Origin: Acidimicrobiia bacterium
Lineage (GTDB): Bacteria > Actinomycetota > Acidimicrobiia > Acidimicrobiales > JACDCH01
NCBI GenBank assembly: GCA_052387955.1
Contig: JBQTIQ010000017.1
Coordinates: forward strand, 8,319 to 72,318
Direction of reading: 5' to 3'
Length of the DNA: 64,000 bases
Under the pieces are notes generated by a model. The model made no database searches. It worked only from the letters and a program-made list of their open reading frames with translations, and was not told the origin of the DNA. This document shows, piece by piece, positions 2,305 to 61,075 of the stretch (position 1 is its first letter; every line of letters begins with the position of its first letter). Both the position numbers and the translations under genes were made by a program.

Positions 2305-3078
2305 CTACTTCCGAGCCGCGTAGCGGCGGTTCTTGAACTTGGCCCGGATGTAGTCGCGGTTCATCAGGGCGATGTAGTCGATGGAAATCGACTTGGGGCA
2401 GGCCGCCTCGCACTCGCCGTGGTTGGTGCAGGAGCCGAAGAACTCCTCCATGGTGTCGACCATCGCCTCGACCCGGGGATAGCGCTCGGCCTGGCCCTGG
2501 GGCAACAGGTTGAGATGGGAGACCTTGGCCGCAGTGAACAGCTGGGCGGCGCTGTTGGGGCAGGCGGCGACGCAGGCGCCACAGCCGATGCAGGCCGCGG
2601 CGTCGAAGGCGGCGTCGGCCACCTCCTTGGGGACCGGGGTGAGGTTGGCCTCGGGGGCGGCGCCGGTCGACACCGTGATGTACCCGCCCGACTCGATGAT
2701 GCGGTCGAGGGCGGAACGGTTGACGACGAGGTCCTTGACCACCGGGAAGGCCGCCGCCCGCCACGGTTCGACGTCGATGATGGCGCCGTCGCGAAAGTGG
2801 CGCATGTGGAGCTGGCAGGCGGCGGTGCCGCGCTGGGGGCCGTGGGCCTGGCCGTTGATCATCATCCCGCACGACCCACAGATCCCCTCACGGCAGTCGT
2901 GCTCGAAGGCGATCGGCTCGTCGCCCCGGTCGACCAGCCGGTCGTTGAGGATGTCGAGCATCTCCAGGAACGACATGTCCGGGCTGATGTCGGAGACGTG
3001 GTAGTTGACCATGCGCCCGGCCGTGTCGGGGCCTTCCTGGCGCCACACGCAGAGGGTGACCGAGATCGTGTTGGGCAT
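2305..3078 (-). CDS. sdhB: Succinate dehydrogenase/fumarate reductase iron-sulfur subunit
   Basis: This is the 3' part of ORF 2305..3231. I moved the start to ATG 3078 ([16 protein letters not shown]...), 13 nt after the sdhA stop. It has three Cys clusters: [22 protein letters not shown] and [12 protein letters not shown]. Confidence 0.9.
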
Positions 3079-3091
3079 TGGGGGCGTCTGC

Positions 3092-5059
<1,968 letters not shown>

Positions 5060-5091
5060 CTGCGGCGCTCCTTGCGCTGATGACCGGCCGG

Positions 5092-5149
5092 CCGAGCGAC
5101 CGCCAGGGAGCCGGACGGCGATGGGGTACGGGGGCGCAGCCCCCGAGCG
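5092..5149 (-). repeat. Family-A intergenic repeat copy in the sdhC-sdhA gap
   Basis: The minus strand reads cgctcgggggctgcgcccccgtaccccatcgccgtccggctccctggcggtcgctcgg. The core palindrome is GGGGGC-TGC-GCCCCC. It matches copies at 11.9, 20.7, 24.1, 36.6, 42.4 and 61.0 kb. Confidence 0.85.
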
Positions 5150-5156
5150 AAGACGC

Positions 5157-6014
5157 TCATCGATCGTCTTCTTCAGCTTCTGCCGCCACGATGGCTGCCG
5201 CCTTCTGGCACGGCACCCCGTTGTTGTTGGTCTCCTGGCAGACCTTGACCCGCTCGGCGTAGTCGAAGTCGATGATGCGGACCTGCACCGCGGCCGGGAA
5301 CCCGAGGTTCGCCCCGGCCACGCCGAGGGCGAAGAGGCGGGCCACCCACACCCGCCAACGGTTGAAGCGGGGCCGGTTCCACCCGAGCGTCTGTAGGAAC
5401 GAGTAGGCCCCGTGGAACATGTGGATGCCGAGGGCCATGTTGGCCGTCTGGTACAGCCCGGCGATGGCCGGCCGCCGGAAGCTGTTCACCATGTTGTTGA
5501 AGGGGTCGCCCCGAACGAAGGAGCCGTTGGCCGTCCCCCACGTCAGGTCAGCCAGGTGGAACACCAGGTAGAGGATCACGATGATGCCCGTGTACCGCAT
5601 CGTCCGCGATGCCCAGTTGGCCGCCACCATGTCGCGCTGGCTGACGTAGCGCTGGGGCCGGGCCCGGTGGTTCATCTTGGTGAGCTGGTACGCCGACATC
5701 ATGTGGAGGGCGAAGGCGATCATCAGCAGGCCGCGGATGCCCCACAGGATCCACGTGCGGGGCGCGAACGGGACCAGCAGGTTGCGCAGCCACTCGCCGT
5801 AGTGATTGAGGTCGTCGGCGCCGAGGAGGGCCTTGGCGTTGCCGAGCATGTGGAACAGCACGAACAGCAGCAGGAACAGCCCGCTGATGGCCATGACCCA
5901 CTTCTTGCCGACGGCCGAGCGGTAGAACTCGACCGCGTACCACCGGCTGTGGCGGACCGGACCGTTCACGACCGGGGTCGGCGCGCTGCTCAAGTCCAGT
6001 TGCGTCGCGCTCAC
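5157..6014 (-). CDS. sdhC: Succinate dehydrogenase cytochrome b subunit (b558-type, five-helix)
   Basis: ORF 5157..6014 with a GTG start. It is a multi-helix membrane protein with conserved His residues ([28 protein letters not shown]). It lies directly upstream of sdhA-sdhB on the same strand. Confidence 0.85.
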
Positions 6015-11911: not shown

Positions 11912-12030
11912 ATCTGCTCGGTCCCGAGGAGGCTTGACGTCGTGACAAGTTCCTGGACCGAGCAGATGCCGACCGAGCGACCGCCACGGAGCCGGGCGGC
12001 GATGGGGGCCGGGGGGCGCAGCCCCCCAGC
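11908..12030 (-). repeat. 123-bp composite repeat (hairpin module plus family-A core), copy 1
   Basis: ctagatctgctcggtcccgaggaggcttgacgtcgtgacaagttcctggaccgagcagatgccgaccgagcgaccgccacggagccgggcggcgatgggggccggggggcgcagccccccagc. By hand it aligns without gaps to the reverse complement of 42369-42491 (about 110/123 identical). It contains the VWA gene stop codon TAG 11909-11911. Confidence 0.9.
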
Positions 12031-12101
12031 CAATGGCCGAGCGTCTGTCGGCCGACGTCAGCGGGCTGACGCCAGGGGCCGGGTGAACCGAGGCCCGGCC
12101 C

Positions 12102-18766: not shown

Positions 18767-18895
18767 GGGTCGTCGGCCGCCGGCAGCTGCCGGCGGGATG
18801 AGCGCACCACGGTGGCCCGGGGGCGCGCGCTGCTCCGCAAGGTGCCCGATGGGTGGGCCCGGCGGCTGTTGCGCTCCGCCCGTCGACTGCTCGGC

Positions 18896-19300
18896 ATGAG
18901 GACACCGACGGTCCGGGCCTCGGGTGGCATCGTGACCGGGCCCGGCGGCGAGCGGGTGCTGCTCGTGCACCGTCCCCGCTACGACGACTGGTCGTTCCCC
19001 AAGGGCAAACGGGAACACGGAGAGACCGACGAGCAGTGCGCCGTGCGGGAGGTCGAGGAGGAGACCGGGCTGCGGTGCCGGCTGGGCCGGGAGCTTCTGC
19101 CCACCCGCTACATCGACGGCAAGGGCCGCGACAAGCTGGTGCGGTACTGGCAGATGGCCGTGGTCGGCGAGACGCCGTGGCAGCCGGGCCACGAGGTCGA
19201 CGAGCTGCGGTGGTGCCGGCCCGACGAGGCTGCCGCCCTGCTCAGCTACGAACGCGACGTCGAAGTGCTCCACACCTGGCAGGCCCCGGGCCGCCGGTGA
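18896..19300 (+). CDS. NUDIX hydrolase (MutT1-like N-terminal domain type)
   Basis: This is the 3' part of ORF 18812..19300. I set the start at ATG 18896. The Nudix box is PKGKREHGETDEQCAVREVEEETGL. Confidence 0.8.
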   Translation: MRTPTVRASGGIVTGPGGERVLLVHRPRYDDWSFPKGKREHGETDEQCAVREVEEETGLRCRLGRELLPTRYIDGKGRDKLVRYWQMAVVGETPWQPGHEVDELRWCRPDEAAALLSYERDVEVLHTWQAPGRR

Positions 19301-20586
19301 ACCCCCGGCCGGCGCCGTCTACCTGGCGACCGACCCCCAATGACCCGGCCGACTGGTTCCCGGCCGAGCAGCTCGACCGCGCCCGCCGCTACCAGCGGCC
19401 GCTGCGGAGGATGCGGGCGCTCCGTACCGCCGTCGCCACCGCAGTGGTGGCGGTGTTCGCCTTCGGCGGGGTCGGCGTGGCGGTGGTCGAGGCCAGCGGC
19501 GCCGACGGCTGGACCGAACGGCTGTTGGTCCTTGCCCTGGCCCTGCAGGTGGCGGCCCTGGCCTACGACGTGCCCCTCGACGCCTGGGTCGATCTCGTCC
19601 ATGACCGCCGGTGGGGGGTGTCGACCCAGACCGGCCGGGGATTCGTCTCCGACCAGGCCCGCAGCTTCGTGCTCACCGCCGTCACCAACGTGGTGTTGCT
19701 GGTGCCGCTGTACGCGCTGGTCCGGGGCACCGGACTGTGGTGGCTGTGGGGTTGGGCGTTGGTGATGACCGTCGCCGTCGCGTTCGGCTATCTCCATCCG
19801 ATCGTGATCGCACCGCTGTTCAACCGCTTCACCCCGCTGGCGCCGGGAGACCTGGCCGATCGGGTGGCGGCGGTGGCGAGCGCCGCCGGGGTCGACCTCG
19901 ACGGGACGTTGGTGGCCGACGAGAGCCGCCGGTCGGCCCGTCACAACGCTTACGTGGCCGGGCTCGGTGCCACCCGTCGGATGGTGCTGTTCGACACGCT
20001 GCTGGCCGAGCCCCCGGGAGCCGTGGAGCAGGTCGTGGCCCACGAGATCGGCCACTGGCGCCGGCACCACGTTCGCGCTCAGGCGCTCGTCGCCGCCGCT
20101 GGGGGCCTGGCCGTGGCGGTTGGGCTCTACGCCGTCGAGCAGTGGGCCTGGTTGCTGGCCCGGGCCGACCTCGGTCCCGAGGCCGGGCTCGGGGACCCGG
20201 CCTCGCTGCCGTTGCTGTTGCTGGCGGCCCAGGTGGGCGCCGGGCTGGCCGGCGTCGCCAGCGCCTTCGTGTCCCGTGCCTTCGAGCGACAGGCCGACGA
20301 AGAGGCCCTGGTGCTGCTCGGTGACGCTGATGGCCTCGTCGATATGCACCGCCGGCTCCACGTGCAGAACCTGGCCGACCTCGACCCCGGGCCCCTGGCG
20401 TACCTGGGCCGGACCCACCCGCCGGCGGCGGAGCGGATGGCCTTCGCCCGGGCGTGGGCCGCCCACCGAGGTGCCGGGGCGCCGGGATCCGGGCAGGGCC
20501 TCCGGGCAAGAACGCTGCCGACCGGGCCGGTCGACGCCATTCACCCAGGGCCCTGCCCGGGGGACTGGCCCCACGCGACGAACTGA
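19297..20586 (+). CDS. M48-family (Ste24/HtpX-like) zinc metalloprotease, membrane
   Basis: This is the 3' part of ORF 18853..20586. I set the start at GTG 19297, which overlaps the NUDIX stop (GTGA). It has several TM helices, an HEIGHWRRHH zinc motif, and ERQADEEA downstream. Confidence 0.8.
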   Translation: MNPRPAPSTWRPTPNDPADWFPAEQLDRARRYQRPLRRMRALRTAVATAVVAVFAFGGVGVAVVEASGADGWTERLLVLALALQVAALAYDVPLDAWVDLVHDRRWGVSTQTGRGFVSDQARSFVLTAVTNVVLLVPLYALVRGTGLWWLWGWALVMTVAVAFGYLHPIVIAPLFNRFTPLAPGDLADRVAAVASAAGVDLDGTLVADESRRSARHNAYVAGLGATRRMVLFDTLLAEPPGAVEQVVAHEIGHWRRHHVRAQALVAAAGGLAVAVGLYAVEQWAWLLARADLGPEAGLGDPASLPLLLLAAQVGAGLAGVASAFVSRAFERQADEEALVLLGDADGLVDMHRRLHVQNLADLDPGPLAYLGRTHPPAAERMAFARAWAAHRGAGAPGSGQGLRARTLPTGPVDAIHPGPCPGDWPHATN

Positions 20587-20733
20587 CGGTGACGGCGGCG
20601 GCTGGGTCGAAGCCCGGCCGCCTCCTCATCGAGGACCCTAAGCAGACGGGGCTGTGCTCAACCAGTAGGTCAACGTGTGACCATCCCGTGGACAGTGCCG
20701 CCTCGTCTGTGGACAGAGCGGCCAGGCCGTTCA

Positions 20734-20941
20734 TGCTCGGGGGCTGCGCCCCCGGGCCCCATCGTCGCCCGGCTCGCTAGCGCTCGCCCGGTCGACCGGT
20801 CACTGGCGGGCGGAGCGAGCGACGGTGGACCCATGACCGCGCCTGCTCGGGGGCTGCGCCCCCGGGCCCCATCGTCGCCCGGCTCGCTGGCGCTCGCCCG
20901 GTCGACCGGTCACTGGCGGGCGGAGCGAGCGATGGTGGACC
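20734..20941 (+). repeat. Tandem duplication (period 110 bp) of a long family-A repeat unit
   Basis: The 98-nt unit tgctcgggggctgcgcccccgggccccatcgtcgcccggctcgctRgcgctcgcccggtcgaccggtcactggcgggcggagcgagcgaYggtggacc occurs at 20734-20831 and 20844-20941. The two copies differ at 2 positions and are separated by a 12-nt spacer. Confidence 0.95.
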
Positions 20942-20969
20942 AAGTGACCGTCCCGCCGGCCCGGTCCGC

Positions 20970-21656
20970 TTAGTCGACGCCGAGCCAGCCCCGTACCAGG
21001 CCGCGGAGATGCTCGACGCCGGTGCCCTTGGCCGAGCTGACCCAGGTCACCTCGGCCCGAGGGAGGCCGCATCCGGCGGCCATCTCGTTCCGGCGTCGAT
21101 CCCGCCGCGCCGCCGGCACCTTGTCGTGCTTGGTGGCGATCACCGCGAAGGCCAGGTCGGCAGCCCGCAGCCAGTCCAGCATCGTCTCGTCGAGCTTGGT
21201 CGGTCCGATCTCGCCGTCGACCACGACCATGGTGGTGCGCAACTCCCGGCGGTCCCGGAGGTATCCCTCCATCATGTGCCGCCACGATTCTCGCTGGGCC
21301 GCCGGCACCGACGCGAAGCCGTAGCCGGGGCAGTCGACCACGGTGGCGTCGTCGAGGGCGAAGCAGTTGAGCAACCGTGTCCGCCCCGGGGTCTTGGACA
21401 CCTGGGCCAGGCCCTTGCGGTTGCTGAGGGCGTTGAGGAGCGAGGACTTCCCCACGTTCGATCGCCCGACTACGGCCACCTCGGCGCGGGTCGGGGGCAG
21501 CTCACCGACCGCGGGGGCCGAGAGCACGAAACGAAGGGGCAGCGGCGGGTTGGACAGCTCCGCTACCAGGTGTCGTCGAAGCGACGCTTGCCCCGGACCG
21601 AACGCTTCAGCTCGCTGAAGTCCGGGTTCTCGGCCAGCGTCCGGACCGCGTCCCAC
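20970..21656 (-). CDS. engB: Ribosome-biogenesis GTPase EngB/YsxC/YihA
   Basis: ORF 20970..21656. It has RFVLSAPAVGELP, the G1 motif GRSNVGKSSLLNAL, and the G3 and G4 motifs (VDCPGYG, TKHDK). The annotated start overlaps the upstream gene by 94 nt, so the start is uncertain. Confidence 0.8.
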   Translation of the reverse strand: MGRGPDAGREPGLQRAEAFGPGQASLRRHLVAELSNPPLPLRFVLSAPAVGELPPTRAEVAVVGRSNVGKSSLLNALSNRKGLAQVSKTPGRTRLLNCFALDDATVVDCPGYGFASVPAAQRESWRHMMEGYLRDRRELRTTMVVVDGEIGPTKLDETMLDWLRAADLAFAVIATKHDKVPAARRDRRRNEMAAGCGLPRAEVTWVSSAKGTGVEHLRGLVRGWLGVD

Positions 21657-23657: not shown

Positions 23658-24167
23658 ATGGCAGAGCCCGACTGGCTGGACGCCGACCAGCAGCGGGCGT
23701 GGCGGGCCTATCTGCGCTCCCACGCCGAGTTGGTGGCGGCGCTGAACCGGCGCCTGGTCGCGGCCGACGGCCTGTCGGTGGCCGACTACGAGGTACTCGT
23801 CCATCTCACCGAGGCCCCCGGTCAGCGCCTCCGCCCCTTCGAGCTGGCCGACCTCATGGCGTGGGAGAAGAGCCGGCTGTCGCATCACCTGGCCCGGATG
23901 CGAGGCCGCGGGCTGGTCCGTCGTCAGCAGTGCGACAGCGATGGCCGCGGCGCCTGGACCGTGTGCACCGCCGCCGGTCGGAGGGCCATGGCCGGCGCCG
24001 CCACCGGCCATGTCGCCGACGTCCGTCGCTGGTTCGTCGAGCCGGTCGGCCAGCGTGACCTGGCCATCCTGGGGGACCTCAGCGAACGGGTCCTGGCTGC
24101 CATCGCCGACGACGAGCTAGCTGGGGGGCTGGGCCCCCCCGGCCCCCGTCGCCGCCCGGCTCCCTAG
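23658..24167 (+). CDS. MarR-family transcriptional regulator
   Basis: ORF 23658..24167. The winged-HTH region is GLSVADYEVLVHLTEAPGQRLRPFELADLMAWEKSRLSHHLARMRGRGLVRR. The last ~16 codons and the stop lie inside a family-A repeat. Confidence 0.85.
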   Translation: MAEPDWLDADQQRAWRAYLRSHAELVAALNRRLVAADGLSVADYEVLVHLTEAPGQRLRPFELADLMAWEKSRLSHHLARMRGRGLVRRQQCDSDGRGAWTVCTAAGRRAMAGAATGHVADVRRWFVEPVGQRDLAILGDLSERVLAAIADDELAGGLGPPGPRRRPAP

Positions 24168-24186
24168 CGGTCGCTCGGTCGGCATC
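24117..24186 (+). repeat. Family-A repeat copy in the convergent MarR/pirin gap
   Basis: ctagctggggggctgggcccccccggcccccgtcgccgcccggctccctagcggtcgctcggtcggcatc closely parallels 42367-42434. Confidence 0.8.
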
Positions 24187-24190
24187 GAGC

Positions 24191-25144
24191 TCAGCCTCGG
24201 TAAGGGCGCAGCCCGTCGACGGGGACACGGCCGAGGCGGCCGGCGTGGAAGTCGTCGAACGCCTGTTGCAGCTCGGCGCGGGTGGTCATCACGAACGGGC
24301 CGTAGGCGGCGACGGGTTCGCCGATGCGCCGGCCCCCGAGCAGGAGCACCTCGAGCGCGCCGGTGGCGTGCGCCCCGACCTCGATGGTGTCGCCGGGGCC
24401 GAAGCGGGCCAGCTGGCCCGACGTGATCGGCTGCCCGTCGGTGCCGACGGTGCCGTCGCCAGCCAGGGCATAGGCCAGGGCATTGAAGCTGGCCGGCCAC
24501 CGCAGTCGCAGCCGGGCGCCGGGGGAGACGGTCGCATGGGCGACGGTGATGGGGGTGTGGGTGGCGCCCGGGCCGATGTGGCCGGCGAGGTCGCCGGCGA
24601 TGAGCCGGACGAGGGCCCCGCCGTCGGCTGAGGACAGCAGGGTGACCTGGTCGCCCTCGATGCTCTGGTAGCGGGGGGCGGCCATCTTGTCCCTGGCCGG
24701 CAGGTTGACCCACAGCTGGACGCCGTGGAACAGCCCTCCGCTCAGCACCAGTTCCTCGGGCGGCGTCTCGATGTGGAGGATCCCGCCGCCGGCGGTCATC
24801 CACTGCGTGCCGCCGTTGGTGATGAGCCCGCCACCGCCGTGGGAATCCTGGTGCTGGAACGTGCCGTCGATCATGTAGGTGACGGTCTCGAAGCCGCGGT
24901 GCGGGTGCCAGTCGGTCCCCTTGGGTTCGCCCGGGGCGTAGTCGACCTCGCCCATCTGGTCCATGTGGATGAAGGGGTCGAGGTCGGCCTTCGACACGCC
25001 GGCGAACGCCCTCCGCACCGGGAACCCCTCGCCCTCGACGGCCCGAGGGGCGGTGAGAACGCCGACGACGGGCCGCGTCGCGGCCTCGGGGCCGGGCCGG
25101 TCGACCTTGGGCAGGGTGAGCGTGTCGGCGGTGATGGCAGGCAT
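24191..25144 (-). CDS. Pirin-family protein (bicupin)
   Basis: This is the 3' part of ORF 24191..25330. I set the start at ATG 25144, preceded by AGGAGG. It has FPVRRAF, DPFIHMDQMG and the metal motif HPHRGFETVTYMIDG. Confidence 0.9.
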   Translation of the reverse strand: MPAITADTLTLPKVDRPGPEAATRPVVGVLTAPRAVEGEGFPVRRAFAGVSKADLDPFIHMDQMGEVDYAPGEPKGTDWHPHRGFETVTYMIDGTFQHQDSHGGGGLITNGGTQWMTAGGGILHIETPPEELVLSGGLFHGVQLWVNLPARDKMAAPRYQSIEGDQVTLLSSADGGALVRLIAGDLAGHIGPGATHTPITVAHATVSPGARLRLRWPASFNALAYALAGDGTVGTDGQPITSGQLARFGPGDTIEVGAHATGALEVLLLGGRRIGEPVAAYGPFVMTTRAELQQAFDDFHAGRLGRVPVDGLRPYRG

Positions 25145-28545: not shown

Positions 28546-28655
28546 GGTCCTCCTGTGGGGGCTCGCCCCACAGTCTCGCGTGCGGTCCGGGTTGCCCACG
28601 GGCGCGGGCCGGGGGATGCCGTCAACGTGACAGGATGTCCGCCGCTGCCGCCGAT

Positions 28656-28720
28656 GCGAGCGCCGGAGCGCCAGCGCAGGTGCGGCCAGGCGCGGCCTGC
28701 GCGGCCGGGGAACGCCGACG
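28656..28720 (+). repeat. Family-B intergenic repeat, copy 1
   Basis: gcgagcgccggagcgccagcgcaggtgcggccaggcgcggcctgcgcggccggggaacgccgacg. By hand it is about 85 % identical to 38822-38886. The GGCCGGGGAAC(G/A)C end also occurs at 30873-30886 and 61059-61070. Confidence 0.85.
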
Positions 28721-29757: not shown

Positions 29758-30836
29758 TCTTCGTCCTCACTTCGCTCCCTCCGCGGCGGCGAGTTCGATG
29801 GGGCAAGGACCGAGCCGTGGTCGGTGAACAGGCCAGAGGCCGGTGACGTGCCGGCCAGCGCGTCGGCACACAGGACCACGGCGGCCGCGGTATAGGTCGA
29901 GCGCTCTTCTCGGGGGAAGCGGGCGCCGTCGGGGAGCACCGTGCCGGTCCAGTAGCGGTCGTCGTCGTGGCGGTACTGAGCTGTCCACGAGAACAGGCGC
30001 TCGGCCTCGTCCCGTCGGCCGACGGCGAGGTGGGCCAGGGCGCATTCGCACGTCTCGGCCACCGTGACCCAGGGCCGGTCGGACACACAGCGCACGCCCC
30101 GGCCCTCGATGACGAAGCGGTGGTGGCGGCCCTCCAGCCGCGCCCGCCCGTCGTCGTCGCCGATCACGCCGGCCAGGACGGGGTAGTACCAGTCCATGGC
30201 CCACCGGTGCTTGGGGGCAAAGGCGTCGGGGCGTCCGACGATGGCTTCGGCCAGACGGCCGGCGGCCTGCTCCCAGTGGGGCCGCTCGTGGCCGAGACGG
30301 CGGGCGAGGGCCACGGCGCAGCGCAGGGAGTGGCAGATCGACGACGACCCCGTGAGCAGGGCGAACGACCATGGGGTGCCGTCGGCGTGCCGGGCCCAGA
30401 TGACCTCGCCCGCCGGCCGCTGCAGGCCGAGCACGAACCCGACGGCTCGCTCGACCACCGGCCACAGGGCGGCGGCGAAGCCGGGATCGTCGAACAGCAG
30501 CAGGTGATGCCACACCCCGGTGGCGACGTAGGCGCACACGTTGGCGTCGAGCCGGTCGTGCTCGACCCGGTCGGCCACGTAGTACTGGTGCCAGGCACCG
30601 TCCGGGCGCTGATGGTCGGCGAGCCAGGCGTAGGCCCGCTCGGCGTCAGCCCGCCGTCCGCCGACCGCCAGGGCCATGGCCGCCTCGACGTGGTTCCAGG
30701 GGTCGGCGTGCCCGCCCGGCACCCACGGGACCAGGCCCGAGGGCAGCTGCCACTCGGCGATGGCGTCCACCGTTCGGGCCAGCTCGGCGGAGGAGACCAC
30801 ACCACGCACCCCAGCCGATACGCCAGACGTCGTCAC
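29703..30836 (-). CDS. Prenyltransferase / squalene-hopene-cyclase-repeat ((alpha/alpha)6-barrel) family protein
   Basis: ORF 29703..30836 with a GTG start. It has repeated QW-like segments (WQLPSGLVPW, HQRPDGAWHQYY, LQRPAGEVIW). The 3' end overlaps the convergent cupredoxin gene by 55 nt. Confidence 0.65.
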   Translation of the reverse strand: MTTSGVSAGVRGVVSSAELARTVDAIAEWQLPSGLVPWVPGGHADPWNHVEAAMALAVGGRRADAERAYAWLADHQRPDGAWHQYYVADRVEHDRLDANVCAYVATGVWHHLLLFDDPGFAAALWPVVERAVGFVLGLQRPAGEVIWARHADGTPWSFALLTGSSSICHSLRCAVALARRLGHERPHWEQAAGRLAEAIVGRPDAFAPKHRWAMDWYYPVLAGVIGDDDGRARLEGRHHRFVIEGRGVRCVSDRPWVTVAETCECALAHLAVGRRDEAERLFSWTAQYRHDDDRYWTGTVLPDGARFPREERSTYTAAAVVLCADALAGTSPASGLFTDHGSVLAPSNSPPRRERSEDEDQPAVMATAMPLGSWNTQ

Positions 30837-30842
30837 CGGTCG

Positions 30843-30887
30843 CGCCCAGGCGCGGCCCTGAGCGGCCTGCGTGGCCGGGGAACGCCA
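30843..30887 (+). repeat. Family-B repeat, partial copy
   Basis: cgcccaggcgcggccctgagcggcctgcgtggccggggaacgcca shares the ccaggcgcggcc and cctgcg.ggccggggaacgcc segments with 28684-28716. Confidence 0.6.
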
Positions 30888-30900
30888 GCTAGCAACGCGT

Positions 30901-35213: not shown

Positions 35214-36566
35214 TCACGGTGCTGGCCCGGTCACGGTACCTAGTGCCCGAACCGCGGCGCGTGCACCCCTCCTACCGTCACGGATGCACGCCGGCACCCC
35301 CAGGCCGCGGAATGCGGCGCCGGCCAGCACCACCGTCGGTAGCTGTTCGGCGACATCCGATTCGACCTCGTCCACCAGGTCGAGGTGCCCCAGCCCGTAC
35401 TGGGGGAACGACCGGTCCCAGCGGCTCACCCGCACCTCGTCGGGCCGGGTGGTCACGTCCATGGTGGCGGTGAGCTCGCGGTGGACGGCGTCGACCAGGG
35501 CGCGGTCGTCGAGGCCGGCGATGCGTTCGTCGCCCAGGCGCCCGGCCGAAGCCCGTACGATGACCCGGCCGTCGTCGGGTGTGAGGTGGGGCCACTTGCT
35601 GGTGGCCCACGACACCGCGGTGACGAGCATGCCCTCGGTGCGGGGCACCAGGAAACCGCTGGCGTCGAGGGCACGGTCGACCGCCTCGGCGGAGTAGGCC
35701 AGGGTCACCACCGCCACCGACGCATAGGGCACGCTCGCCAGGCGGTCGGCAGCGGAGCGGGCGCCGGCCCGGGCCGCCAGCGGTGCGGCCAGGTGGGCGG
35801 GCAGGGCCACCACCACGGCGTCGGCGTCGAGCGCTCCCAGGTCGACGACGGGGGAACCTGTGCACACCCGGGCGCCGGCGGCGGCCAGGGCCCCGACGAG
35901 GGCGTGGACCAGTGCGCCCATGCCGCCGCGGGGGGCGTAGAAGAGCGGCGCAGCAGGATCGGAGGGCAGCTCGGCCCGCAGGGCGCCGACGAGGTCGGCG
36001 CTACGCTCGGCGGCCTCGGCCAGCCGGGGCGCCGCCGCTCGGGCCGACAGCCGGTCGCAGTCGCCGGCGTTGATCCCGCCCAGGAGCGGGTCGACCAGCC
36101 GCTCCAGCACGTCGTCGCCCAGCTGCTGGCGCACCAGGGCGCCGATGGTGATGTCGGCACCGGGAGCGAGGGGTGCCGGCGCCGGCCGGGCCGCCACCGG
36201 GCCTGGGACGATGCCCGAGGCGGCCACCGCCTCGAGGTCGGTGGGCACCCCGAGGACCAGCCCGGAGGGCAGCCGGCGCAGGGCACCGTCGCAGAAGACG
36301 TAGGCCGAACGTCGCGCCGGTGTCACCAGGTCGCCGGCGAGGCCGAGCTCCCGGCACAGGTCGACGGCCCACGGCAGCCGGGCGAGGAAGGCGTCGGCCC
36401 CCTCGTCCACGGGCCGTCCGGCGAAGGCGGTGGTGCGCACCTTGCCCCCCACCCGGCCGGCGGCCTCGTGCACGACCACCTCGACGTCGGGGGCCAGGCG
36501 GCCGAGCTCGTAGGCGGCGGCCAGGCCCGTGACCCCGCCCCCGACCACCGCCACCCGCCGGGTCAC
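35214..36566 (-). CDS. hemY: Protoporphyrinogen/coproporphyrinogen III oxidase (HemY/CgoX type, FAD)
   Basis: This is the 3' part of ORF 35214..36713. I set the start at GTG 36566 (VTRRVAVVGGGVTGLAAAYEL, a dinucleotide-binding fold at the N-terminus). It also has HEAAGRVGGKVRT and VDEGADAF. Confidence 0.85.
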   Translation of the reverse strand: MTRRVAVVGGGVTGLAAAYELGRLAPDVEVVVHEAAGRVGGKVRTTAFAGRPVDEGADAFLARLPWAVDLCRELGLAGDLVTPARRSAYVFCDGALRRLPSGLVLGVPTDLEAVAASGIVPGPVAARPAPAPLAPGADITIGALVRQQLGDDVLERLVDPLLGGINAGDCDRLSARAAAPRLAEAAERSADLVGALRAELPSDPAAPLFYAPRGGMGALVHALVGALAAAGARVCTGSPVVDLGALDADAVVVALPAHLAAPLAARAGARSAADRLASVPYASVAVVTLAYSAEAVDRALDASGFLVPRTEGMLVTAVSWATSKWPHLTPDDGRVIVRASAGRLGDERIAGLDDRALVDAVHRELTATMDVTTRPDEVRVSRWDRSFPQYGLGHLDLVDEVESDVAEQLPTVVLAGAAFRGLGVPACIRDGRRGARAAVRALGTVTGPAP

Positions 36567-36767
36567 CGGGGCACCGTCGCTTGGGGTCTCCCCCGGTGAC
36601 CCCTCGACCGGGTGAGCGCCAGCGAGCCGGGCGACGATGGGGCCCGGGGGCGCAGCCCCCGAACATGAACGGTCACCGGGACCCCGTCGCTTGTGGGCGC
36701 AGCTCCCGAGCATGAACGGTCACCGTGGCACCATCGCTCGGGCGCAGCCCGGGGCATGAACGGTCAC
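36563..36767 (-). repeat. Family-A repeat array (units of 44, 47 and 110 nt) filling the hemH-hemY gap
   Basis: The minus strand has GTGACCGTTCAT(G/T)... units beginning at 36767, 36723 and 36676. The 110-nt unit matches the 20.7-kb tandem unit (tcgaccggg.gagcgc.agcgagccgggcgacgatggggcccgggggcgcagcccccga.catgaacgg on the plus strand). Confidence 0.9.
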
Positions 36768-37681
36768 GCCATCCGCAGGCGCCCGGCGAGGGCGTCGAGG
36801 ACGATCGGGTCGGTGTTCAGGGCCCGGGTGCGGGCGAACCCGAGGCCGACCTCGTCGGCGCGTCGGGCGGCGGCGACGTCGAGGTCGTAGAGGAGCTCGA
36901 GGCCGTCGGCGGTGAACCCCTGGGGGCAGACGACGACGCCGTCGGCCCGGCCGGTGGCGGCCAGCTCGGTGATCACCTCGAGGATGTCGGGACCGCGCCA
37001 CTCGTCCCCGGTGCGTCCCGCCGACTGCCAGGCGATCCCCCAGTCGGCCCAGCGGTCGAGGCCCGCTTCGGCGCCGATGGCGGCGGCCGAGCGCGCCAGC
37101 TCGTCGGGATAGCGGTCCCCCTCGAGGACGCGCTCGGGCAGGGAGTGGGCGGTGAAGAGCACCTTGACCCGCCCGGCGGCCCCATTCCCGCCGGTGCGCC
37201 TGGCGAGCTCGGCGCGGGCCTCGGTGACGGCCGTGGCTTGGAAGCGGCGCCACTCGGGCAGGTCCCACCAGCTGCCTACCGTGGCCGCCTCGAGCCCGTG
37301 CTCGGCGGCGGCGGCCACGAGGCGGCCGGCGTACTCGCCCACCGAGCCTCGGCTGTCGTGGGGAGCGAGCACGATGCCGATCACCCGGTCGGCGCCGGCC
37401 TCCGCCACCACGGCCACGCCGTCCTCGATGAAGGGCGGGGAGTGCTTCTGGCCCGCGACCACCACGAACCCGGGGCCCAGGGCCTGGCCCACACGGTCGG
37501 CCTGGGCTTCGGTGATCCGGCGCAAGGGGGAGGTACCGCCGATGGCGTCGTAGCGCGAGCGCAGCTCGGCCAGCAGCTCGGCGGTGGGGGGCCGGCCCCG
37601 GCGGATGTGGGTGTAGTAGCGCTCGAGGTCGCCGGGTGAGACCGGCGAGCCGTAGGCCATCACCACCACGCCGGTCGTCAC
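36764..37681 (-). CDS. hemH: Ferrochelatase (coproporphyrin ferrochelatase type)
   Basis: This is the 3' part of ORF 36764..38074. I set the start at GTG 37681 (ATG 37660 is an alternative). It has the blocks VVMAYGSP, YDAIGG.SPL, LFTAHSLP and the C-terminal GFTADGLELLYDLD. Confidence 0.85.
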   Translation of the reverse strand: MTTGVVVMAYGSPVSPGDLERYYTHIRRGRPPTAELLAELRSRYDAIGGTSPLRRITEAQADRVGQALGPGFVVVAGQKHSPPFIEDGVAVVAEAGADRVIGIVLAPHDSRGSVGEYAGRLVAAAAEHGLEAATVGSWWDLPEWRRFQATAVTEARAELARRTGGNGAAGRVKVLFTAHSLPERVLEGDRYPDELARSAAAIGAEAGLDRWADWGIAWQSAGRTGDEWRGPDILEVITELAATGRADGVVVCPQGFTADGLELLYDLDVAAARRADEVGLGFARTRALNTDPIVLDALAGRLRMA

Positions 37682-37724
37682 GGCCGCCTCGCGGCCCTCG
37701 GCGATGCCGGCCCGGCCGCCACGC

Positions 37725-38801
37725 TCACCGTGACGTGCGGCCTTCGGTGTGTACCAGATCGACCAGCCGAGCGAGGGTGTCGGGGTCGGTCTCGGGCAGC
37801 ACGCCGTGGCCGAGGTTGAACACGTAGTTGGGTTCCCCCCCGCCCTCGGCCAGCACGTCGCGGGCCGCCGCTTCGACCGCCGCCCACGGGGCCAGGCACA
37901 CCGCCGGGTCGAGGTTGCCCTGCAGCGCGGTGCCGGGACGCACGGCGTCGACCCGCTGGCGGGCGAGTGACAGCGGCGTGCGCCAGTCGACGCCCACGAC
38001 GTCGGCGCCGGCCTCGGCGAAGAGCCCGAGCAGCTCACCGGTGCAGACACCGAAGTGGGCCCGGGGCACGCCAAGGTCGGCCACGGCGGCGAACACCTTG
38101 GCCGACGCCGGCAGCACCTGGCGCCGGTAGTCGGCCGGGGTCAACGCCCCCGCCCAGGAATCGAACAGCTGCACCGCCTGGGCGCCGCTGTCGACCTGGG
38201 ACCGCAGCGAGGCGATGGCCAGGTCGGCCAACCGGTCGAGCAGCTTCTCCCACAGTCCCGGATCGGTGCGCATCAGCGCCTTGGTGCGGGCGTAGACCCG
38301 TGAGGGGGCACCCTCGATCAGGTACGAGGCCACGGTGAAGGGGGCTCCGGCGAACCCGATCAGGGCTACATCGGGGCCGAGCGACTCGGCCACCAGTGAC
38401 ACCGTCTCGAGCACATAGGGAGTGTCGGCATCGGGGTCGAGCGGCCGCAGCCGGTCGAGGTCGGCGGCCGAGCGGAACGGCGCCTCCACCACCGGGCCGG
38501 TGCCAGGGGCGATGTCGACCCCGAAGCCGATGGCGGCGACCGGCACCACGATGTCGGAATAGACGATGGCGGCGTCCACGCCGTAGCGCCGTACCGGCTG
38601 AAGGGTGATCTCCGCTGCCAGTTCCGGTTTGCGGATGGCGTCGAGGATCGAGCCGTCGCCCCGCACCGCCCGGTACTCGGGCAGCGCCCGGCCGGCCTGG
38701 CGCATGAACCACACCGGCACCCGCCCGTGGGGCTCGCCCCGGCAAGCGGCCAGGAACGGTGCGGTGACCGCGTGCTCGATGGAGCCCGGCCGTTCGGTCA
38801 C
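37725..38801 (-). CDS. hemE: Uroporphyrinogen decarboxylase
   Basis: ORF 37725..38801 with a GTG start. It has [30 protein letters not shown], and the rest is family-typical. Confidence 0.95.
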
Positions 38802-38821
38802 GGGCCTCCCCGTCCACCGGT

Positions 38822-38886
38822 ACGAGCGCCGGAGCGCCAGCGCATGCGGGGCCAGACCCCGCCTGCGGGGCCGGGGAACACCGACA
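38822..38886 (+). repeat. Family-B intergenic repeat, copy 2
   Basis: acgagcgccggagcgccagcgcatgcggggccagaccccgcctgcggggccggggaacaccgaca lies in the patatin-hemE gap. Confidence 0.85.
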
Positions 38887-42336: not shown

Positions 42337-42368
42337 GGGGCACCCCGTGCCGCCACCCGGCAGATCTA

Positions 42369-42491
42369 GCTGGGGGGCTGCGCTCCCCGGCCCCCATCCC
42401 CGCCCGGCTCCCTGGCGGTTGCTCGGTCGGTATCTGCTCGGCCCCGGGACCTGTGACAACGTCATGCCTTCTCGGGACCGAGCAGATCTAG
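42369..42491 (+). repeat. 123-bp composite repeat (family-A core plus hairpin module), copy 2
   Basis: This is the reverse complement of 11908-12030 at about 89 % identity by hand alignment. The hairpin arms atctgctcggccccggg / ctcgggaccgagcagat lie at 42432-42448 / 42471-42487. CAGATCTAG occurs at both 42361-42369 and 42483-42491. Confidence 0.9.
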
Positions 42492-52590: not shown

Positions 52591-52728
52591 GCTGGTTCGC
52601 TGCGGGCTGGGGGCCCTTCGCTCATGTGTCGGCTGCTCGCTGGCGGTCGCGACGCCGACGCTGGTTCGCTGCGGGCTGGGGGCCCTTCGCTCACGTGTCG
52701 GCTGCTCCCTGGCGGTCGCGACGCCGAC
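52591..52728 (+). repeat. Tandem 69-bp repeat x2 (family-A-related variant)
   Basis: gctggttcgctgcgggctgggggcccttcgctcaYgtgtcggctgctcSctggcggtcgcgacgccgac occurs at 52591-52659 and 52660-52728, with 2 mismatches. Confidence 0.95.
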
Positions 52729-60617: not shown

Positions 60618-60938
60618 TCAGGCGCCGGTGAGCAGGTCGCGGGTGCCGGTCATGTCGAGCACGCGGGTGACCGCCGCGCTGGCTGGGGAGACCTGGAACG
60701 CGATGCCGGCGTTGACCAGCCGCTCGCGGCCCTGCAGCAGCGCCCTGAGACCCGACGAATCGATGAACGTCACCAGGCCGGCGTCGACGCTGACGGTGGT
60801 GACCCGCTGGGCGGCCAGCGAGGCGAGCACCTCGGTCAGGGCGCCGACCCCGTCGAGGTCGAGCTCGCCGTCGAGTCGCACAACCGCTTGGTCACCTTCG
60901 ACCAAGGTCTTGATGTCGACGTGGGCCGGGCTGCTCAT
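60618..60938 (-). CDS. STAS-domain anti-sigma-factor antagonist
   Basis: ORF 60618..60938. It reads VVRLDGELDLDGVGALTEVL...VSVDAGLVTFIDSSGLRALLQGRERL...VLDMTGTRDLL. Confidence 0.85.
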   Translation of the reverse strand: MSSPAHVDIKTLVEGDQAVVRLDGELDLDGVGALTEVLASLAAQRVTTVSVDAGLVTFIDSSGLRALLQGRERLVNAGIAFQVSPASAAVTRVLDMTGTRDLLTGA

Positions 60939-60974
60939 CGCGACGGACGATAGCGGCCGTTCGGGCCTGTCGCC

Positions 60975-61075
60975 GAGGCGAGCGCCAGCGAGCCCGGCGA
61001 CGATGGGGCCCGCGGGCGCAGCCCCCGAGCATGAAACGGTCGAGCCCCAGCCGGCGTGGCCGGGGAACGCGACAA
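60975..61075 (-). repeat. Composite family-B end plus family-A core in the HMG-CoA lyase / STAS gap
   Basis: The minus strand reads ttgtcgcgttccccggccacgccggctggggctcgaccgtttcatgctcgggggctgcgcccgcgggccccatcgtcgccgggctcgctggcgctcgcctcgg. Confidence 0.85.

Follow-up and report, generated by a model that had tools for sequence, protein, structure and literature searches.

The sdhC-sdhA spacer of an Acidimicrobiia bacterium is probably a single copy of a mobile intercistronic repeat with a relay open reading frame

In the genome of an Acidimicrobiia bacterium, the succinate dehydrogenase genes sdhC and sdhA are separated by a spacer that is itself one short open reading frame (ORF), overlapped at one end by the stop codon of sdhC and at the other by the start codon of sdhA. 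The question raised by this locus is what such a spacer is, and how it could stand in a core respiratory operon. The stretch of DNA analysed, hereafter the window, comprised 64,000 nucleotides (nt) of a metagenome-assembled genome (MAG; contig JBQTIQ010000017.1). The spacer is probably a single copy of a mobile repeat of the type of MIRUs, the interspersed repetitive units of mycobacteria, whose insertion between the two cistrons would be transparent to linked translation by way of a relay ORF.

The initial annotation had described a repeat-borne ORF of 34 codons filling the spacer, ATGA overlaps at both of its ends and the sdhA Shine-Dalgarno sequence inside it, and all of this was borne out. 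The mini-ORF (5056-5160, minus; ATG 5160-5158, TGA 5058-5056) was a single repeat unit, with 101 nt from the 5' ATG to the 3' ATG, a length of 2 mod 3. In the 5' joint (ATGA, 5157-5160, minus) the sdhC stop (TGA 5159-5157) overlapped the mini-ORF start, and in the 3' joint (ATGA, 5056-5059, minus) the mini-ORF stop overlapped the sdhA start (ATG 5059-5057). The Shine-Dalgarno sequence AAGGAG lay within the mini-ORF at 5068-5073 (minus), 8 nt upstream of the sdhA ATG. Upstream, sdhC (5157-6014, minus; TIGR02046, 167 bits) encoded the cytochrome b558-type membrane subunit; its coordinates are those of the longest ORF, so that its 5' end is approximate. Downstream, sdhA (3092-5059, minus; NF005749, 1158 bits) encoded the flavoprotein subunit of 655 aa. 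The sdhA start was well supported, since it was the first ATG, GTG or TTG in the upstream-open frame, followed a well-spaced AAGGAG, was annotated at the same place in an identical 655-aa SdhA of an NCBI Acidimicrobiia MAG, and left 20 residues ahead of the conserved LDxKVP motif, against 12-17 in the closest relatives.

Eight full units of the repeat, plus fragments, were found in the 64-kb window by local BLAST, alignment and an nhmmer profile, at about one unit per 7 kb. Besides the sdh copy (5055-5164, minus), full units lay at 11934-12034 (minus), 24107-24212 (plus), 36571-36677 (minus), 42358-42465 (plus) and 60936-61040 (minus), and as a tandem pair at 20723-20828 and 20829-20940 (plus). 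The hairpin GGGGGCTGCGCCCCC was common to all eight. Each copy was read in three frames on the strand of the repeat itself, and the frame of the sdh mini-ORF was open also at 20.7/20.8, 36.6 and 61.0 kb, as the initial annotation had held; copies sharing this frame were joined by (A/G)TGA.

The clearest case of unit-to-unit joints in the window was a chain of three units (44, 47 and 110 nt) at 36563-36767 (minus), leading from the ferrochelatase gene (hemH) to a protoporphyrinogen-oxidase-like gene. The chain had four joints, all GTGA. The ferrochelatase gene (36764-38074) had its stop in GTGA 36767-36764, each unit was an open mini-ORF ending in the next GTGA, and the last GTGA (36566-36563) opened the protoporphyrinogen-oxidase-like gene at GTG 36566, with a protein starting VTRRVAVVGGGVTG. 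Were the longest ORF called for this gene (from ATG 36713), its protein would gain about 49 residues that derive from the repeat, which makes the repeats a likely source of misannotated N-termini. At 60936-61040 (minus), the frame of the copy ended in ATGA at the ATG (60938) of a STAS-domain gene, and the 5' joint was degenerate. The tandem pair at 20723-20940 (plus; period 110, ATGA joint at 20833) lay between convergent gene ends, with an M48 peptidase gene (18853-20586, plus) on one side and an ORF (20970-21656, minus) on the other. The last joint of this pair, GTGACCG at 20944, was 111 nt off and out of phase, which suggests that phase decays where no gene follows. Tandem arrays were thus present at 36.6-36.8 kb and 20.7-20.9 kb, and also in locus L203, with four units. 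In L203 (9910-10284 of an independent 550 kb ENA contig) the four units stood ahead of a STAS-domain gene, like the copy at 61.0 kb of the window; one of them had a +1 indel, and its ORF was fused to the next unit.

Among 80 species representatives, sdhC and sdhA mostly met directly, through an overlap of the form ATGA, GTGA or TGATG, with the homology of SdhA starting a few codons past it. Alignment of the junction to related genomes found none with the same insert. The two nearest relatives with DNA (L081 and L082, 84-85% SdhA identity) had a single GTGA overlap, that is, an empty site, and a third relative (81% SdhA identity) had an sdhC-sdhA overlap of 1 nt. The repeat unit was absent from 1.25 Mb of DNA, 82 loci, of related Acidimicrobiia. 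As the relatives had the direct overlap and no insert, the element appears to have been inserted at an ancestral sdhC-sdhA overlap. On these alignments the ancestral junction is shown as a direct 4-nt stop/start overlap, and the 101-nt insertion as derived. The filled site in the window was flanked by ATGA...ATGA, and the empty site of L081 and L082 had one GTGA. A scan of genome contigs gave no close relative (best SdhC identity 61%), and the repeat was absent from all of the loci it gave. Derivation of the longer C-terminal tail of SdhC from loss of the ancestral GTGA stop was considered and rejected, the by-eye alignment with L081 being out of frame.

A metagenome scan with the hairpin core returned at least 120 stretches, mostly from soil and desert projects, and the profile gave 142 matches in 116 of the 120 metagenome loci listed. 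The canonical unit was xTGACCG-N7-CTCGGGGGCTGCGCCCCCG..CCCCATCG...CCGGTCA(G/C)GAGCTnCGCTC-xTGACCG, 92 nt from start to start, with both (A/G)TGA joints at fixed positions. The xTGA was found exactly 16 nt ahead of the hairpin in 29 of 114 non-duplicate units (0.8 expected). In F-class units with the 5' joint, the first in-frame stop overlapped a start codon in 30 of 33 evaluable cases (29 as (A/G)TGA and one as TGATG), and wherever the contig extended far enough in these 33 units a clearly coding ORF followed the 3' joint. A real upstream gene ended in the 5' TGA in only about 14 of the 33, which points to the 5' xTGACCG being part of the element or a duplicated target; the pattern is consistent with start codons of the ATGACC type, a common one, as the place of insertion. 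Within a unit, the 5' and 3' tetranucleotides were concordant beyond expectation (Fisher p = 0.008), in line with duplication of the target. Both flanks could be called for 58 units, of which 49 lay between co-directional genes (20 co-oriented with one strand, 29 with the other) and 9 between convergent or divergent genes, classes that are approximate given that gene calling was GC3-based and crude and at first picked antisense shadow frames.

A second, opposite-strand (R) class was made up of about 18 metagenome units (L090, L101, L114, L120, L172, L179, L180 and L194 are examples among L083-L202) with the hairpin core as in the F class. Its layout was xTGA(G/C)CGAGCGCAGCGAG..., the hairpin core, GGAGG, and then an xTGA opening a coding ORF. 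The relay ORF of this class differed (ATGAGCGAGCGCAGCGAG...), the GGAGG was next to the hairpin arm and 6-9 nt before the 3' xTGA, and unit lengths were 83-110 nt, all 2 mod 3. In two metagenome loci, L133 and L187, units were fused in-frame to the downstream gene. The long downstream ORF of L133 begins MAYGTPRAPEQIETYY and seemed ferrochelatase-like by eye; hemH in the window likewise borders units. The recurrence beside STAS-domain and ferrochelatase-like genes may reflect orthologous insertions or a preference for certain targets.

Unit lengths of 89, 92, 95, 101, 110, 113 and 149 nt, together with the 44 and 47 nt of the window, were all 2 mod 3, the only length class that lets a chain from xTGA to xTGA work. 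The listing of lengths followed the reading frame and was 2 mod 3 by construction; hence phase was tested separately, with the frame of the downstream gene called from the codon-position G+C pattern alone. In the F class 20 of 24 genes called were in coupling phase (p = 7e-7, null 1/3), with 2 in-frame fusions and 2 in the remaining phase, and in the opposite-strand class 11 of 12 (p = 5e-5, null 1/3), with 1 other; both counts are inflated by shared descent of the canonical units and are not fully independent. The phase argument rests chiefly on the independent length variants: that units differ so much in length speaks for purifying selection having acted repeatedly on indels that break the frame.

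These counts bear on one alternative, a neutral accident in which a repeat landed in an ATGA junction and duplicated 4 nt of its target, the mini-ORF goes untranslated or is of no consequence, and sdhA initiates on its own AAGGAG. For a spacer of about 100 nt, the single-locus chance of both xTGA joints, phase and no in-frame stop was about 1%, and that of ATGA at both ends about 0.2% (from window composition and crude gene calls). Such figures are not negligible genome-wide and are not compelling alone; the AAGGAG was also strong and well spaced, and all three frames of the sdh copy were open. Chance is excluded by the statistics of the family (29 of 114 against 0.8; 20 of 24 and 11 of 12 against 1/3). 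Further cases of the double-joint, in-phase layout, of various unit lengths, were present at hemH and dozens of independent metagenome loci, and the sdhA AUG was predicted to be paired within a hairpin conserved in the family. An accident is accordingly a very improbable account of the junction. The initial annotation had judged the arrangement unlikely to be accidental, and this stands for a reason other than the one it implied: joints, phase, open frame and the Shine-Dalgarno-like word are properties of the family. Selection did not shape the single sdh insertion; the features are built into the repeat.

Column variability at codon positions 1, 2 and 3 of the relay ORF was 0.51, 0.31 and 0.54, and synonymous to non-synonymous changes in the relay frame (516/1226) were no better than in the +1 frame (457/1206). 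Selection is apparently on phase, with none seen on the peptide. It is hardly credible, then, that the mini-ORF encodes a functional small protein such as a succinate dehydrogenase accessory or assembly factor, even though it is ATG-initiated within an operon and similar ORFs in metagenomes have been called hypothetical proteins. A search with the repeat peptide returned 22 of these, all short and with no taxon names attached. Against such a protein, the same peptide stood beside unrelated genes (hemH and the hemY-like gene, the STAS-domain gene and many more), codon position 1 was about as variable as position 3, the mini-ORF had no Pfam or NCBIfam match, and the closest relatives were without the ORF.

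Conservation was found instead in RNA structure. In the sdh copy, hairpin 1 (CGGGGGC-TGC-GCCCCCG, 5129-5145, minus) was the invariant family core, a 7-bp stem unchanged across 19 aligned units, and stem-loop 2 (5084-5124, minus) had compensatory base changes across the family. Pair 43-76 of stem 2 was UA in 10 units, CG in 7, AU in 1 and GU in 1, and pair 54-64 was CG in 10 and GC in 7, with compensatory changes in several combinations. For hairpin 1 plus stem 2, 95.6% of cells were paired, against 30-47% when slid, and covariation was 0.169 against a shuffled mean of 0.059. For the 3' hairpin, 85% were paired, against 24-41% when slid, and covariation was 0.117 against a shuffled mean of 0.047. 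In both cases the observed covariation was reached by none of 500 shuffles. Within the 3' hairpin (CGGTCAsGAGC/GCTCxTGACCG) the start codon of the downstream gene is paired, and its first base co-varied with the base opposite (A with U, G with C). As predicted for the fold of the sdh copy, this hairpin (5053-5086, minus; CGGTCAT/ATGACCG) had the sdhA AUG paired with CGGUCAU and the AAGGAG in a small internal loop. The AAGGAG sat in a 9-nt in-phase insertion relative to the canonical 92-nt unit, and at the equivalent place canonical units carried just AGGAG or ACGAG. A unit, on these alignments, is shown to have a common anatomy of (A/G)TGA ends, a length of 2 mod 3, a stop-free frame, an invariant G+C-rich hairpin, a covarying stem, a Shine-Dalgarno-like word and, at the 3' end, a hairpin in which the downstream start codon is paired. 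A 7-bp perfect inverted repeat, GAAGACG/CGTCTTC (5149-5171, minus), had the 5' ATGA in its 9-nt loop; it was built from the last sdhC codons and the variable N7 segment and was specific to the sdh copy.

A structure-based RNA element like REP/BIME would suit the invariant hairpin 1, the compensatory changes seen both in stem 2 and in the 3' hairpin, a peptide that is not conserved as a protein, and the copies at convergent gene ends, where coupling is impossible. Such an element could act, for instance, as a stabiliser on the 3' side of the sdhC segment, a processing site or an attenuator of the SdhC:SdhA ratio, with frame and joints reflecting tolerance only. It would leave the multiple-of-three length changes and the single downstream phase unexplained. 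In addition, a promoter and terminator scan of the sdhC-sdhA spacer gave no match and no T-run or terminator-like site, and with the Rfam 15 covariance models the window as a whole had no gathering-threshold match, nor did 4950-5300 have any at E <= 1. A purely structural element is thus an unlikely reading, held with some reserve. Structural and relay roles are not mutually exclusive.

With the spacer read as a repeat carrying a relay ORF, the following course is proposed. The element would have been inserted at the sdhA start codon, with a tetranucleotide left on both sides. A ribosome finishing sdhC at the UGA would restart on the overlapping AUG of the mini-ORF and translate the 33 sense codons of the unit, opening its structures, the start-masking hairpin included. 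It would then terminate at the UGA overlapping the sdhA AUG and restart there, aided by the AAGGAG. The insertion would be almost neutral for the SdhC:SdhA ratio and leave coupled synthesis nearly intact, and the relay peptide itself would be a by-product. Such behaviour has a precedent: at overlapping AUGA (-4 spacing) a terminating ribosome restarts, and ribosomes are brought in by a short upstream ORF, which also clears repressive structure from the downstream start (PMC12548453). Compared with AUGA coupling and bicistronic designs, the short ORF here comes from a mobile repeat and is chained between pre-existing genes, or in up to three units.

Several points weigh against this reading, apart from the shared descent behind the phase counts. 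Translation of the mini-ORF and re-initiation at sdhA are inferred from sequence. An open frame by itself means little in DNA of 72% G+C, the value for the window, in which all three frames of the copy are open. Initiation of sdhA on the AAGGAG could be independent of the mini-ORF. In many units the 5' joint has nothing to couple to, in keeping with the upstream genes counted above. Taken whole, the sdh spacer was predicted to fold no more stably than shuffled sequence does (z = -1.6). Neither a transposase nor any mechanism of mobility was identified, a RAYT gene not having been searched for.

For 25 years MIRUs have served in the typing of tuberculosis, yet their biology is still a matter of conjecture. 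The reason for their place in operons, the translation of their ORFs and the way they move are open questions, in part because a clonal pathogen offers only about 40 nearly identical loci. The family described here is abundant and diverse, and so makes selection visible in multiple-of-three indels, in coupling phase and in a hairpin that co-varies with the start codon. MIRUs are 40-100 bp long and present in about 40-50 copies per genome; filled sites have direct repeats of a tetranucleotide where relatives have empty sites, the internal inverted repeats are rich in G+C, and the ORF overlaps the adjacent genes at its ends (PMC3184786). They insert at start codons, with an internal ORF coupled at -4 spacing (Supply et al. 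1997, as summarised in PMC12548453), and units of 77 and 53 bp have been reported (PMC4213456), lengths that are 2 mod 3 like the 44, 47, 92, 101 and 110 nt found here. Both families are interspersed, often tandem and located in polycistronic operons, with ORF ends overlapping the stop or start of the neighbour. Every architectural trait of MIRUs (copies, joints, duplicated tetranucleotide and empty site, co-directional and tandem placement, phase) was found here; the likeness is one of architecture.

The two families also differ. The host here is an Acidimicrobiia MAG, together with uncultured soil bacteria, and not Mycobacterium, so that the repeats are at most an analogue or a distant relative of MIRUs. 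Compared with the roughly 40-50 MIRU loci per mycobacterial genome, the present family, with at least 120 metagenome contigs and about one unit per 7 kb of the window, greatly exceeds them in number and diversity, and it has an invariant 7-bp hairpin, a conserved start-masking hairpin and a sister class with a second relay ORF on the opposite strand. A literature search on MIRU-like repeats in other Actinobacteria yielded no account of such elements beyond the mycobacteria.

[quoted passage not shown] Those families, however, are not defined by phase-preserving ORFs that overlap the stop or start of the neighbour. REP/BIME, which are RAYT-associated imperfect palindromes of 20-40 nt headed by a conserved 5' GTAG, differed further from the present 92-nt unit, with its two or three distinct stems and no GTAG head. 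As for MITE-type ends, the 5' TGACCG had its complement in a CGGTCA that is internal, about 15 nt short of the 3' joint, and not terminal; a direct repeat xTGA(CCG) of 4-7 nt flanked the unit, and no parent insertion sequence or transposase was identified for it. Rickettsia palindromic elements and further repeats that enter genes in-frame (PMC3184786) share with the present family the tolerance of open-frame repeats in translated sequence (here in L133, L187 and a MarR-family gene of the window). They are in-frame segments of proteins, whereas the typical unit here is a separate coupled cistron between genes.

Taken as a whole, with the same hairpin core in both orientations and a different relay ORF on each strand, the data allow a broader proposal, made tentatively and with a little more doubt than belief. 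Soil Actinomycetota may host a large undescribed superfamily of start-codon-targeting, translation-transparent mobile elements, each with a complete ribosome-relay cassette made up of a start placed over the upstream stop, an open frame locked in phase, a Shine-Dalgarno sequence, a hairpin over the downstream start and a stop that overlaps this start. If so, the elements would not be merely tolerated; they would enforce and perhaps tune coupling, through hairpin strength and the number of units, as in sdhCAB and hemH-hemY. The family would also supply the statistical power that MIRUs are without, to show that translation of the relay ORF is under selection.

The value of the sdh locus is mainly comparative, the repeat being abundant, not peculiar to sdh, and diverse enough to show selection on the relay frame. 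The notion that a relay ORF makes an insertion harmless moves from a proposal to a testable and partly tested statement, and the relay-repeat strategy would not be confined to mycobacteria. The repeats are of practical concern as a cause of misannotated N-terminal extensions and spurious small proteins in high-G+C MAGs, and they represent, in nature, the kind of bicistronic-design part that synthetic biology makes use of.

Within the window, the units at 11934-12034 (minus), 24107-24212 (plus) and 42358-42465 (plus) formed a second subfamily with CTAG borders and an extra hairpin (ATCTGCTCGGnCC...GGnCCGAGCAGAT), and these copies directly followed gene 3' ends. The MarR-family gene (23658-24167) ran about 17 codons into the copy at 24.1 kb, so its C-terminus is repeat-derived. 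A different repeat family, interspersed and of 81 nt, had three copies at 28639-28719, 30809-30889 and 38805-38885, and a 69-nt tandem duplication (97% identical) at 52591-52728 had weak similarity to the family studied.

The third gene of the operon, sdhB (2305-3078, minus; ATG at 3078), encoded the iron-sulfur subunit. At the sdhA-sdhB junction (3076-3094, minus), the sdhA TAG (3094-3092) was followed by a 13-nt spacer with no overlap and no repeat, unlike the closest relative, L081, in which sdhA and sdhB overlapped by 4 nt.

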